Assembly (NCBI GenBank): GCA_963753975.1 | Contig: CAVWEH010000001.1 | Coordinates: 192,001-256,000 of the forward strand | Reading direction: 5' to 3' | Length of the DNA stretch: 64,000 nucleotides | DNA from: an uncultured delta proteobacterium | GTDB lineage: Bacteria; Desulfobacterota; Syntrophia; Syntrophales; Smithellaceae | The notes under the pieces: generated by a model | The model's input: only the letters and a program-made list of their open reading frames with translations | Databases searched by the model: none | What the model was told of the DNA's origin: nothing | Translations under genes and position numbers: made by a program | In this document: positions 23,145 to 42,139 of the stretch, in pieces | Layout: every line of letters starts with the position of its first letter | Numbering within the stretch: the stretch's first letter is position 1

Positions 23145-23172
23145 TTGACATAAAAAAAATAGTGCATAATAT
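23145..23172 (+). promoter_or_regulatory. Putative sigma70-type promoter of groESL
   Basis: TTGACA-16 bp-TAATAT preceded by an AT-rich UP-like tract. Confidence 0.5.
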
Positions 23173-37362: not shown

Positions 37363-39126
37363 GTGCGTTTTGATGACAATAAGATTGAAGAAATCAAAAG
37401 CAGGGTAGATATCGTTGAGCTGGTCTCCGAATATCTTGCTTTGAAGAAAGCGGGACGGAATTTTATCGGTCTCTGCCCCTTTCATCAGGAAAAAACGGCA
37501 TCTTTCACGGTTAATCGTGAAAAACAAATATTCTACTGTTTTGGATGCGGCGAAGGCGGGAACGTTATCACTTTCCTGATGAAAATTGCCAATAAGACTT
37601 TTCCGGAAGCAATTAAAGATTTAGCGGAAAAAACGGGAGTTATTTTACCGCAGCGGCAAGTAAGCAAAGAAAGCCAGGAAAAAGATAGGCTGCGCGAAAG
37701 CATCACCGGCATTAATTTAACGGCGGCGCATCAATTTACGCGCAATCTACTCTCCCCTTTAGGCAAAGACGCTCGTGAATGCTTGACAAATAGGGGTATT
37801 GCCGAAGAAACCATCAAACAATTCCGGTTGGGCTATGCGCCCGATAGCTGGCGGTCATTGGCAAATTATTTAGAGGGCAGCGGCCTATCCCTGAAATTAG
37901 CCGAGCGAGCGGGCTTGGTTATCGCCGGCAAAGACGAAGGTTTCTACGATCGGTTTCGTGGCCGGCTGATTTTCCCCATTGAAAATATTTTTGGCGAAAC
38001 GGTGGGTTTTGGCGGCAGAGTTCTGGAAAAAGGCGAACCGAAATATCTGAATTCGCCGGAATCGCCGGTTTACAGCAAAGGGAAAATTCTATATGGTTTG
38101 AATAGGACAAAAGAGGAAATCCGCAAGCAGGGTTTTGCTCTTATTGTCGAAGGCTATTTTGATTTGATTTCTCTATGGAATGCGGGTATCGGCAATGTCG
38201 TTGCCACTTTAGGGACAGCACTGACCAGAGAACATATTGAGCTTTTAAGGCGTTACACTCCGGAAGTCGTTGCCCTTTTTGATCCGGATGAAGCAGGGAT
38301 AAAAGCCCTTAACCGCAGCCTCGAATTATTTTTGAGCATGGGAATACGGACGCGGGCGCTGATTTTGCCGGAAGATTGCGATCCGGATGATTATGTAAAA
38401 AGATACGGCAAAGATAAACTTAATGAACTTATTACTCACGCTCCGGCAATAAGTGATTACTATATTGATCATGTTTTGGGCGGCGGAAAGACTTTCGAGG
38501 ATAAACGGGAAATGATAAAAACTGCCATGGAACTTATTAATAAGATCAGCGATAAAAAAGAAAAGGATATTTTTATTAAACGGATAGCGGAAAAAACAGG
38601 CATTAATCAAGAGTTGCTGATAAAAGAAATTTATGAAAATGAAATGCAAATAAGGCCGAAAATTGGGAAAGAAAGACTACGACTTAATATTAATAATGAT
38701 TTAGTGGAAATGCATTTAATTCAGCTTCTGCTGGAGTATCCGCAGAAAACGACTCAGATCGAAAATGAAAATATATTAGGTTTTTTTCTTCAGCCGGAGC
38801 TGAAAATTCTAGGGGGAAAAATTGTTGAAACCTATAAGCTGCTTGGTTTTGTTGATATTAACATCATATTGTCTGCAGATGAAGATAAACCTTTACTCGA
38901 AAGAATACATAAATTAAGAATGGAAACACCGCTGGTTGATGATGTCAAATTAGGGAAGCTTTTTGACGATAATATCCGGCAAATTAAGAAAAAATGGTAT
39001 AAGGATCAACACAAACAAATTAAATTGAAGCTGGGCCAAGCTCAAGAAAGCGGCGATGAAGAGCTTTTGAGCACGCTTCTTCGCGAAAAAGAAAAGTTGC
39101 TAACCAAAGAAAAAGAATTACATTAA
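37363..39126 (+). CDS. dnaG: DNA primase
   Basis: CPFHQEKTAS...CFGC zinc finger, PKYLNSPE, VEGYFD, DPD Toprim motifs. Confidence 0.97.
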   Translation: MRFDDNKIEEIKSRVDIVELVSEYLALKKAGRNFIGLCPFHQEKTASFTVNREKQIFYCFGCGEGGNVITFLMKIANKTFPEAIKDLAEKTGVILPQRQVSKESQEKDRLRESITGINLTAAHQFTRNLLSPLGKDARECLTNRGIAEETIKQFRLGYAPDSWRSLANYLEGSGLSLKLAERAGLVIAGKDEGFYDRFRGRLIFPIENIFGETVGFGGRVLEKGEPKYLNSPESPVYSKGKILYGLNRTKEEIRKQGFALIVEGYFDLISLWNAGIGNVVATLGTALTREHIELLRRYTPEVVALFDPDEAGIKALNRSLELFLSMGIRTRALILPEDCDPDDYVKRYGKDKLNELITHAPAISDYYIDHVLGGGKTFEDKREMIKTAMELINKISDKKEKDIFIKRIAEKTGINQELLIKEIYENEMQIRPKIGKERLRLNINNDLVEMHLIQLLLEYPQKTTQIENENILGFFLQPELKILGGKIVETYKLLGFVDINIILSADEDKPLLERIHKLRMETPLVDDVKLGKLFDDNIRQIKKKWYKDQHKQIKLKLGQAQESGDEELLSTLLREKEKLLTKEKELH

Positions 39127-39163: not shown

Positions 39164-40915
39164 ATGGCTAAAGAACTGCAATCCGATGAATTTAAAAAAT
39201 TACTTTCACTGGGTGAAGAAAAAGGATTTTTAACTTACGATGATGTCAACGATATGTTGCCGCCGGATGTAACCTCTTCGGATCAAATTGATGATATTAT
39301 TATACTTTTTGGAGAAAAAAATATTGATATCATTGATACAGAACAGGGTGAAAAGCTCGTGGTGAAAAAGCCCGCAGAAGATGTTGCGCCTGCTAAATTT
39401 CCGGAGACATTGGCGGCGTTGGTGCCCGGCGCCGGAAAAACTGGAGATCCAGTCAAAATGTACTTGCGCGAAATGGGCTTGGTCTCTCTTTTGAGTAGAG
39501 AAGGGGAAGTGGAAATAGCGAAAAAAATAGAAGAGGGCGCGCGCGAAACGATGTCGGCAATTTTTCGGCTGGCCGTTTCGATTAAAGAGGTTCTCAATCT
39601 TGCCGATAAGCTGCAAACTGGAGAAATTCGAATCAAAAACGTCGTCGATAATATTGAAGATGAAGAAGGTTTTGTCGAAGAGGATGAACATAAAGAGAGG
39701 GTTCTAAAGCTGATTTCCAGGATTAAACTTTTCAATGACAGAAATAACGTTTTGCTCGTTAAACTCAAATCCAAGACTATGCGTAGCAAGAAGCGTGAAT
39801 TGTTAAATGCCGAGTTGGAAAAAAACACGAAGAATATAATTACGCTTTGCCGGAAAATTCGCTTCAGTAAAAAACAAATTTATCGATTTGTTTCCCGTCT
39901 GCGTCACTATAGCGAGGAGATAGAAAGAGCAGAAAAAATTATTGCCCAATATAAAAAGGAAACCAGATTAACCCTTGCTCAATTGGAAAAAGCATGGGCG
40001 AAAATGAAAAGATCGAAGTCTGATGAAAAACGAGCGGCTAAAGAAAATCGTGTTTCCATTGATCTGCTTAAAAAAAGCAAGGTCGCCATAAATGAAGCGC
40101 ACAAAAGAATAAAGCAAATTGTGCGGGAAGTAGGTATACCGACAGCGACCCTGAAAACTGTTGTTAAGTCCATTGACGAAGGTGAACTTAAAGCAGAAAT
40201 AGCTCAAAGGAAACTTGTCGAGGCAAATTTACGCCTCGTCGTAAGCATCGCCAAGAAATACACCAATCGCGGCTTACAGTTTCTTGATCTAATTCAGGAG
40301 GGCAATATCGGCCTAATGAAGGCCGTGGATAAATTTGAGTATCAACGCGGCTATAAATTTTCTACGTATGCGACATGGTGGATTAGACAGGCCATCACAC
40401 GCGCTATTGCCGATCAAGCAAGGACAATAAGGATTCCTGTCCACATGATTGAAACAATCAATAAACTCATCCGCACTTCCCGTTATTTAGTGCAGGAATT
40501 GGGTCGCGAACCTACCCCCGAAGAAATTGCCAATAAAATGGAATATCCGTTGGAGAAAGTAAGAAAGGTATTAAAAATTGCGAAAGAGCCCATTTCCCTG
40601 GAAACTCCTATAGGCGAGGAAGAGGACAGTCATTTGGGCGATTTTATCGAAGATAAAAAGATCATGTCTCCTTCGGAAGCGACGATCAACATGGACCTGG
40701 CGGATCAAACAAGAAAAATATTGTCAACACTTACTCCTCGTGAAGAAAAAGTTTTACGTATGCGTTTTGGCATCAGTGATAGGTTAAACTCTTCGTCGGA
40801 AGACGAAAAAGTGATAGCGGATTTAATGGAAACATTGATAGAAGAGTCTGAAGTTATTGAAGCTCCGGCATCGAAAAAAACTAAGAGCAAATCACGAAAG
40901 CGTTCTTCAAAATAG
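39164..40915 (+). CDS. rpoD: Group 1 sigma70 factor with degenerate region 4.2
   Basis: Regions 1.1, 1.2 ([11 protein letters not shown]), 2 ([29 protein letters not shown]), 3 and 4.1 ([15 protein letters not shown]) intact; HTLEEVG/TRERIRQIE absent in all three frames. Confidence 0.93.
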
Positions 40916-40917
40916 TA

Positions 40918-40946
40918 TTGACAAGCTATATATTTGGGTATATCAA
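40918..40946 (+). promoter_or_regulatory. Putative promoter of the tRNA gene
   Basis: TTGACA immediately after the rpoD stop, with TATATC/TATCAA 15-17 bp downstream. Confidence 0.45.
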
Positions 40947-40981: not shown

Positions 40982-41057
40982 GGGCCCATAGCTCAATTGG
41001 TAGAGCCACCGGCTCATAACCGGTAGGTCCCTGGTTCGATCCCAGGTGGGCCCACCA
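40982..41057 (+). tRNA. tRNA with CAT anticodon, most likely tRNA-Ile2 (lysidine)
   Basis: 76-nt cloverleaf GGGCCCATAGCTCA...CCGGCTCATAACCGG...GGGCCCACCA; paired G1-C72 and no GGG/CCC anticodon stem (not initiator); position after rpoD as for E. coli ileX. Confidence 0.9.
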
Positions 41058-41419: not shown

Positions 41420-42139
41420 TTGAAAAGGAATTTATTATCGTTAATTGAACTTCAGGAATGTGATTCGCAATTGGTTAAGCTGCTGACCGGGAAAAAAAAT
41501 CTGCCGGAAAGGCTGGATAAACTCGACACAGAATTCTTAGCATTCAGAGATGAAATCGAACAAAATAAAAAAAAGTATGATCAGCTTAAATCTCTGCACT
41601 CGGATAAAGAAAAAGAAATTAAAAAACTCAATGAAAATAGCGCCAAAGCCAAGGAAAAGCTTCTGGAAGTCAAGAACAATAAGGAATACCATGCTATGCT
41701 TAAAGAGATTGAGGTTATCGAAGCATTATACGGCGATGTTGAAACTGAAATAATTTCCATACTCGAGGAGATGGACAAGGTGTTGCTTCTAGCAAAAAAA
41801 GATGAGGAATCTTTGAATCAGCAAAAGAAGAAATATGAAGAAGACAAGAAGAAGATGAAGGCGGAGCTCAACACAATAGATGAAGATTTTGTGAAGTGGG
41901 AGCAAAAGCGCAATGATTTGAGAAAAAAAATTCCTGGCGATCTTTTGGCCAAATATGAAAAGATCAAAAACAGAAATAACGGCATCGGCGTAATTTCTGT
42001 TTGGAAGGAAGTATGCAACGGCTGCCATATGAATATTCCACCGCAACTTTATAATGAACTGCAAAAGTCGTCGGAGTTAATCAGTTGCCCCAATTGCAAT
42101 CGAATAATTTATTTCCAAAATAGAGAAAAATCGACCTAG
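41420..42139 (+). CDS. Coiled-coil protein with C4-type zinc ribbon
   Basis: Long coiled coil, CNGCHMNIPPQ...CPNCNRI. Confidence 0.92.
   Translation: MKRNLLSLIELQECDSQLVKLLTGKKNLPERLDKLDTEFLAFRDEIEQNKKKYDQLKSLHSDKEKEIKKLNENSAKAKEKLLEVKNNKEYHAMLKEIEVIEALYGDVETEIISILEEMDKVLLLAKKDEESLNQQKKKYEEDKKKMKAELNTIDEDFVKWEQKRNDLRKKIPGDLLAKYEKIKNRNNGIGVISVWKEVCNGCHMNIPPQLYNELQKSSELISCPNCNRIIYFQNREKST

Follow-up and report, generated by a model that had tools for sequence, protein, structure and literature searches.

How are the -35 boxes of housekeeping promoters read in a bacterium whose primary sigma factor has lost the part of the protein that normally reads them? This question is raised by the rpoD gene at positions 39164..40915 (plus strand) of a stretch of 64,000 nucleotides, called here the window, from contig CAVWEH010000001.1 of an uncultured bacterium of the Smithellaceae (order Syntrophales, class Syntrophia; assembly GCA_963753975.1). 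In the textbook picture the primary sigma factor is a single chain, whose domain 4 reads the -35 box and serves as docking site for many activators and anti-sigma factors. An earlier note, made from the letters of the window, had described at this locus a primary-type sigma with a normal sequence up to the motif MRFGI and a region 4.2 that had degenerated within the frame. Three explanations had been offered: a sigma factor working without -35 reading, a separate region-4 protein acting in trans, or a decoy paralogue beside an intact rpoD.

The analysis reported here covered the genome to which the window belongs (G000; 2.43 Mb, 95.1% complete), a class sample of 121 genomes of Syntrophia (one order, each at least 85% complete) and an outgroup sample of 146 genomes of the same phylum from outside the class. 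From the comparison of these sequences it is proposed, with a probability of roughly 0.65, that the housekeeping sigma works as two polypeptides and that -35 reading is supplied in trans by a protein of 94 residues. In this division of labour RpoD (583 residues), with its regions 1.1 to 4.1, would be responsible for core binding, -10 recognition and DNA melting, and the small protein would supply the helix-turn-helix of region 4.2, the reader of the TTGACA box. The small protein would most likely be located at the position of sigma domain 4 on RNA polymerase, against region 4.1 of RpoD and/or the beta flap, and region 4.2 of RpoD would have decayed in place to a charged tail after the separate copy took over. 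This reading is preferred because the domain content and the distribution of the two proteins are complementary, region 4.1 of RpoD is invariant, region 4.2 of the small protein is nearly frozen, and the TTGACA boxes are conserved and stand at a fixed spacing.

RpoD and its decayed region 4.2

The primary type of the sigma factor and its position between dnaG and a tRNA gene, as described earlier, were borne out. The DNA primase gene dnaG (37363..39126; Pfam DNAG_N 1.8e-39, Zn_ribbon_DnaG 2.2e-37 and Toprim_2) lies 37 bp upstream of rpoD, and on the other side stands tRNA-Met (CAT; 40982..41057), identified with ARAGORN; both are on the plus strand, as are all the features of RpoD given below. 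Four Pfam regions of RpoD exceed their cut-offs, namely region 1.1 (residues 5-73, 39176..39382; PF03979, 5e-18), region 1.2 (residues 95-125, 39446..39538; PF00140, 6.5e-12), region 2 (residues 351-421, 40214..40426; PF04542, 1.8e-24) and region 3 (residues 430-506, 40451..40681; PF04539, 8.7e-31). Region 4.1 (residues 520-537, 40721..40774) is retained and nearly invariant across the class, so that the description of RpoD as normal up to MRFGI, the isoleucine of which ends at 40774, holds. With the RpoD equivalog model NF004208 the protein scores 610.8 bits (cut-off 555), and the match spans model positions 20-591 of 631. With the Sigma70_r4 hidden Markov model (PF04545) no confident match was obtained: the score of 22.9 bits is below the cut-off of 24.1, and residues 520-536 correspond to profile positions 2-18 of 50 only. 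This primary sigma is complete save for a functional region 4.2; the full region 4 of a group-1 RpoD is not found in its chain, in which the helix-turn-helix of region 4.2 has decayed.

Beyond MRFGI the protein continues in frame for 46 residues (40775..40912), of which the first 30 or so are acidic and the last 16 basic, with net charges of -8 and +8, respectively. This tail is collinear with region 4.2 of the solved RpoD 7ye1_F, with a gap of just three residues, and the identities that survive are few and scattered (E..IEA.A..K.K..SR.R). Judged by this alignment, the tail is region 4.2 decayed in place, in agreement with the in-frame decay and the faint collinear remnants noticed before. 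Clearer vestiges of region 4.2 are present in more distant families of the class, reading ...TRERARQIEANTL..FRNPSRKR at one locus (L061) and GVTVERTKQIEANALKRLRNPSRRR at another (L094).

By searching 40 relatives with the last 243 residues of RpoD, the gene was found in 37 of them (38 of 41 when G000 is included). C-termini were read from 38 genomes of the class, 30 of them with loci from this search, together with 5 and 3 further ones; those left out were three without a match (G002, G019, G036), two fragments (G014, G024) and that of G033, where only a different sigma of 487 residues was matched, on a 3.1-kb contig. The canonical TLEEVG...TRERIRQ occurs in none of the 38, and in nearly all the relatives the match extends across the tail, the open frame being about 590 residues long. 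In an alignment of 33 C-terminal sequences, mean pairwise identity is 89% over the 42 residues up to MRFGI, with 16 invariant columns, and 26% over the tail. The length of the tail (45-50 residues) and its acidic-then-basic charge pattern are kept in 31 of the 33 sequences.

The ratio of nonsynonymous to synonymous substitution rates (dN/dS) was estimated by the method of Nei and Gojobori (NG86) with 10 genomes within the genus, and after pairs with unusable dS had been dropped 15-33 of 45 pairs were left per region. The values are rough, because dS (1.0-1.5) is close to saturation; they amount to 0.019 for regions 2-3, 0.019 for regions 3.2/4.1 and about 0.20, ten times higher, for the tail. 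The tail is under strongly relaxed selection, and the value of about 0.20 means that this selection is not neutral.

These data also bear on the possibility that the locus reflects an artefact or a dying gene, be it a misassembly, a frameshift or a pseudogenised copy of rpoD beside an intact one, which is hardly credible. At 95.1% completeness a gene could in principle be missing from the genome, but nothing was found that speaks for this explanation. The same architecture is found in 38 of 38 C-termini from independent assemblies, with an open frame and a kept length, dN/dS in the tail is 0.2 and not 1, and a second RpoD was found neither in G000 nor in six single-contig genomes of the class. 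Misassembly as the cause, or an indel, a single one of which the earlier note had already argued against, was rejected on the conservation of the architecture across relatives.

The small protein and its distribution

A scan of G000 with PF04545 gave three matches: RpoH (281 residues; NCBIfam TIGR02392, 332.7 bits against a cut-off of 323.1), an extracytoplasmic function (ECF) sigma of 179 residues, and an open reading frame of 94 residues on contig 2, outside the window (G000:C2:663279-663560). The latter scores 49.4 bits, and its match (residues 42-74) covers profile positions 18-50 only, which is the part that RpoD lacks. In the same manner, NF004208 matches the small protein at model positions 590-628 (58.9 bits), abutting the match to RpoD. 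The coverage of the Pfam and NCBIfam models is complementary, and the two chains together carry all promoter-recognition regions. Among the explanations offered earlier, the separate region-4 protein in trans is now the favoured one, as this frame fills exactly the gap left in the RpoD model and accompanies the decayed RpoD throughout the class. No other candidate -35 reader was found among the Sigma70_r4 matches in G000.

The decoy paralogue, in turn, is rejected for G000, because no second intact rpoD was found there and the six single-contig genomes are also without one. In a whole-genome search a single RpoD-like match was obtained besides RpoH, and the other sigma-70-family matches are RpoH and the ECF sigma only.

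Region 4.2 of the small protein is of the primary-sigma type. The RpoH, ECF and FliA models score just 21-30 bits, and in the alignment with region 4.2 of solved primary sigmas (4g6d_A, E 3.3e-12; 7ckq_F; 3n97_A), which covers residues 44-84, TLEEVG and GVTRERIRQIEAKAL are identical. Among 39 sequences, residues 44-85 show a mean pairwise identity of 96%. The first 43 residues match no Pfam family. Cysteines C7, C18, C23 and C35 are conserved in all lineages, and C40 is replaced by valine in a second lineage, that of G138 and G179. When the N-terminal 45 residues were compared by HMMER with 1.84 billion representatives, 13 matches were returned; 12 of these are proteins of 80-172 residues in which the cysteine part is followed by region 4.2, and the thirteenth is a spurious repeat protein. 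No longer, fused protein with the same N-terminal part turned up in a word search, which is weak evidence.

Through a pattern scan of 185,579 species genomes, 314 relatives of the small protein were confirmed. The best 80 of the 314 are labelled Smithella, Smithellaceae, Syntrophaceae, Syntrophales or 'Deltaproteobacteria', with the exception of one on a 2.3-kb contig labelled Desulfuromonas sp. Existing annotation labels the small protein either 'hypothetical' or 'sigma factor-like helix-turn-helix DNA-binding protein', and a cluster look-up of its counterpart from the second lineage returned no names. Trans-splicing by a split intein, which was considered as a candidate for the pair, was rejected: neither protein has a Hint/intein Pfam match (E <= 1 or 10), and the extra segments of 46 and 43 residues are too short.

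Within the class, a full-length match to the small frame was found in 117 of the 121 genomes (E <= 2e-41), including the six single-contig genomes (G031, G071, G094, G110, G112 and G127). In these six, the region 4.2 query otherwise matches only frames of about 290 residues, and no long sigma with an intact region 4.2 was found; rpoD and the small gene share one chromosome in single-contig genomes, for example in G031. Outside the class, the small protein is present in two of the 146 phylum genomes, G138 and G179, which belong to one genus, with 58-59% identity, and the RpoD of both (578 residues) likewise ends in a decayed, acidic-then-basic tail. A tree of RpoD that included this lineage and one of five outgroup loci was uninformative on one versus two origins, as 15 of its 19 inner branches were unresolved and long branches were joined.

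In 141 other phylum genomes just the 4.2 part (query residues about 40-90) is matched (E 1e-13 to 1e-8), and three of the 146 gave no match to the small protein. Among the matches listed outside the class, with frame lengths taken from 150 of 216, the frames are mostly of 422-710 residues, which is ordinary RpoD; G168 has a frame of 366 residues, and frames of fewer than 300 residues are those of G273 (89), G277 (115), G206 (141), G234 (213) and G201 (252). The 4.2 matches in the three shortest frames (G273:C1:15462-15587; G277:C1:499912-500037, the only match in that genome; G206:C18:209061-209189) could represent broken frames or other stand-alone sigma-4 proteins.

TTGACA boxes and their reader

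The spacing and conservation of the TTGACA boxes indicate that they are still in use. Searching both strands of the genome for exact TTGACA upstream of TATAAT (at most one mismatch), 67 cases were found with a spacer of 17, 31 with 16 and 28 with 18, against a background of 12.6 +/- 3.1 at other spacers between 5 and 40. The profiles of four scrambled hexamers at one mismatch were flat, and TTGACA at one mismatch was also without a clear peak; the control for the exact-match peak is provided by the other spacers, because the scrambles were run only at one mismatch. When the hexamers that occur 15 times or more at 17 bp from TATAAT-like sites, on the upstream side, are ranked by enrichment, TTGACA comes first, with 67 cases against an expectation of 13.3; the runner-up has a ratio of 2.5. 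Exact TTGACA is found within 150 nucleotides upstream of 24 of 45 tRNA genes, compared with 3.5% of 20,000 random 150-mers; it is the commonest hexamer in that position, with a start 36-66 nucleotides before the tRNA in 19 of these cases. Within the window, TTGACA-N15-19-TANNNT is at chance level (3 found, 2.36 expected), the excess being seen only genome-wide.

The boxes pointed out in the earlier note, at 23145 and at 40918-40923, are both present. The second one begins a promoter-like site for tRNA-Met (40918..40946, plus strand), in which a 17-nucleotide spacer is followed by TATCAA at 40941-40946. Of the 33 loci having the tRNA, 29 carry exact TTGACA between rpoD and tRNA-Met; they come from many families, and the flanks of the box diverge. 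At a thirtieth, L052, box and stop codon seem to overlap, as read from the spacer sequence. A sigma factor working without -35 reading, the remaining explanation from the earlier note, is disfavoured by the strong enrichment of TTGACA boxes at 17-bp spacing and by their phylogenetic conservation.

A related alternative keeps RpoD as a sigma without region 4.2 that does not read -35 boxes and takes the small protein for an independent DNA-binding regulator, or an RNA-polymerase accessory factor, with a captured region 4.2, as seems to be the case for stand-alone sigma-4 proteins of phages. This is considered unlikely. It would fit with the nearest non-self neighbours of the small protein in the ESM Atlas, which are phage clusters of Sigma70_r4 proteins of about 80 residues, with the putative character of the binding between the small protein and RpoD, and with the constraint still seen on the RpoD tail. 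Nevertheless, it leaves unexplained the coincidence by which the small protein occurs in 117 of 121 class genomes and in two of 146 others, both with a decayed RpoD. The invariance of region 4.1 is likewise left without explanation, and it favours a partner, because region 4.1 without a 4.2 partner would have little reason to persist. The same is true of the fixed 17-bp spacing between TTGACA and the -10 hexamer, from which it follows that the reader must be held at a fixed place on the holoenzyme. In addition, a crude genome-wide check, made mostly of non-promoter sites, gave a TG frequency of 0.052 one base ahead of TATAAT-like hexamers, within the range of 0.047-0.070 at adjacent offsets and thus without an excess.

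Returning to the two-polypeptide sigma, we infer that the small protein is bound to the holoenzyme and reads the TTGACA boxes, and that its cysteines bind metal. The pairing was also evaluated by complex prediction, in which the C-terminal 88 residues of RpoD (33-row alignment) and the small protein (39-row alignment) were used as chains. The interaction prediction score from aligned errors (ipSAE) was 0.47, 0.45 and 0.47, compared with 0.00 for the best of three controls, a result that the tool rates as weak support. The mark applied to ipSAE is passed by 116 of 157 solved complexes and by 2 of 215 mismatched pairs; scores of 0.60 or less belong to just 18 of the 157 solved complexes and to both passing mismatches. 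The prediction runs share at least 82% of contacts, and the predicted local distance difference test (pLDDT) value of the partner is at least 63. The two chains make up a domain for which many structures have been solved, so that passing the mark may be due to resemblance to these.

Several findings weigh against the two-polypeptide reading. The tail of RpoD has some function of its own, which the two-protein model leaves unexplained, because it is still under purifying selection and has kept its length and charge pattern; as a guess, its charges might pair with basic stretches in the small protein, or it might touch the DNA backbone. Four genomes that are 90-100% complete (G030, G111, G075 and G133) lack the small protein, even when searched with a 50-sequence profile; G075 and G133 have congeners that carry it, and G030 and G111 have the least decayed tails. 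Furthermore, nine genomes of the class sample and G033 carry an extra sigma with an intact region 4.2, in frames of 350-530 residues. Over all samples, such an extra sigma was noted in a minority of genomes, namely G051, G065, G106, G126, G059, G096, G100, G130, G011:C37, G033:C314 and G179:C2. Those of G011 and G033 stand on 3-kb contigs and may be contamination. Finally, AlphaFold2 models of the small protein alone are of low confidence, with pLDDT of 55 and 59. They show a short N-terminal hairpin and helices at residues 30-42, 47-54, 58-72 and 75-85, and the helix 30-42, preceding the helix-turn-helix, could replace the second helix of region 4.1 and make the small protein self-sufficient.

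The last point leads to an alternative in which the small protein is a self-contained replacement of domain 4. The cysteine part and helix 30-42 would stand in for region 4.1, the protein would dock on the beta flap without contact to RpoD, and region 4.1 and the tail of RpoD would serve otherwise, for example in occupying or gating the flap. The place of helix 30-42 directly ahead of the helix-turn-helix in the AlphaFold2 model speaks for this arrangement, as do the Foldseek comparisons of the model with the PDB, in which weak rows span 52-59 columns of sigma-A region 4 (59 for 1ku7_A) compared with 41 sequence-similar residues. These weak rows are all sigma region 4, but none reaches E <= 0.001, the model has a pLDDT of only 59, and the invariance of region 4.1 in RpoD would again lack a reason. 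The self-contained replacement is held to be quite unlikely.

Relation to known systems and neighbouring genes

In possessing regions 1.1, 1.2, 2, 3 and 4.1, the dnaG-rpoD locus, an NF004208 score over the cut-off and promoters resembling TTGACA-17-TATAAT, the system is like canonical group-1 RpoD/SigA; it is unlike it in that region 4.2 is decayed in RpoD and present on a separate protein of 94 residues. Stand-alone phage Sigma70_r4 proteins, seen as clusters in the ESM Atlas, are similarly small and carry a mainly primary-sigma-like region 4. In contrast to them, the small protein coexists with a host RpoD that is without the matching part, and its N-terminal cysteine part was seen in no other family (12 real matches in the 1.84 billion representatives). 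WhiB-like (Wbl) iron-sulfur (Fe-S) proteins on sigma-A region 4 offer another parallel, as in them a small cysteine-rich module is attached to region 4 of the sigma factor at the beta flap; structures of Wbl with sigma-A (8cwt, 8d5v, 7kug) are among the weak Foldseek rows, via their sigma-4 chains. In the Wbl case the cysteine protein is a separate activator and the sigma-4 part belongs to SigA, whereas in the small protein the cysteine part is fused to region 4.2 itself; no likeness of this part to Wbl proteins, in sequence or in fold, was seen.

Split sigmas as such are already known. A recent preprint names B. subtilis SigO-RsoA, Tn916 Sig7-Sig8, T4 gp55/gp33 and SPO1 gp33/gp34, in which, as proposed here, -10 and -35 recognition reside on two polypeptides acting as one sigma (10.64898/2026.10.01.756105). 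These sigmas, which are alternative ones or belong to mobile elements or phages, are divided between domains 2 and 4, and their association with RNA polymerase has been shown. The Syntrophia system, by contrast, would be a class-wide housekeeping sigma cut inside domain 4, between 4.1 and 4.2; in addition, its old region 4.2 persists as a decayed tail, and its small subunit has an added four-cysteine part. Full-text literature searches, with subscription-only papers outside their reach, returned no publication on the small protein, nor any on a primary sigma with a decayed region 4.2. A two-protein primary sigma divided inside domain 4 is undescribed in the literature searched.

If the proposal is true, the class-wide separation of the 4.2 module would show that a housekeeping sigma can be modular, and it would amount to a natural experiment on the way in which the beta flap holds domain 4. 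Global control would also become possible, via the abundance or the metal/redox state of a tiny subunit, a control knob that is absent from covalently intact sigma factors, in organisms living at the thermodynamic limit. Members of Syntrophia include syntrophic degraders of fatty acids and alkanes. Promoter models, heterologous expression and annotation in Syntrophales would need to take the second gene into account, as the RpoD found here passes the RpoD model on its own. Cultured members of the class would allow a direct test of the idea of a two-protein sigma.

The small gene may itself be subject to such control. A TTGACA box accompanied by -10-like hexamers was found upstream of it in four of four relatives examined, from several families (L028, L030, L083 and L084), and this box suggests that the expression of the small gene depends on its own product and is self-reinforcing. 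Sequencing runs were uninformative on expression: none contained more than 0.17 of the sampled words, and the contigs obtained were pieces of relatives. In genomic order, genes for a glutaredoxin-like protein (83 residues) and a ferredoxin-thioredoxin-reductase-like protein (110 residues) precede the small gene (L002:632-1215; contig 2 of G000). This upstream order is found in 19 of the 22 loci of family f1 that include the upstream flank (20 of 23 with G000), as well as in L035 of another family, and enoyl-CoA hydratase and HU-like genes are convergent downstream in most loci; these labels come from reading the sequences, with no family-library scan. Both the box and the two upstream neighbours are compatible with a supply or redox loop. 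The more ambitious version of the proposal, in which the class runs its housekeeping transcription with an obligate two-polypeptide sigma-70, the four-cysteine module binds metal or an Fe-S cluster, and subunit supply or redox state tunes all -35-dependent promoters, must be called tentative, with the odds against it.

Further observations were made on the genes discussed. Five genomes of the class (G047, G105, G109, G112 and G127) have the small protein twice, the additional copy being more diverged and 66-81% identical to the query. In G075, a sigma of about 320 residues (G075:C1:298811-299485) is 46% identical to regions 2-4.1 of RpoD and has a good 4.2 match; in G075, G073 and G103, which belong to one genus, an in-frame stop (TGA or TAG) lies inside the match to this sigma. 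At L037, in G013, rpoD is without a stop codon, and the frame is extended by about 25 further residues, over the TTGACA box and in the direction of tRNA-Met. Just downstream of rpoD and tRNA-Met in the window, at 41420-42139 on the plus strand, a protein of 239 residues is encoded, with a CT398-like coiled-coil hairpin (PF24481) and a C4 zinc ribbon (PF02591); the Chlamydia namesake of this hairpin reportedly binds sigma-54.

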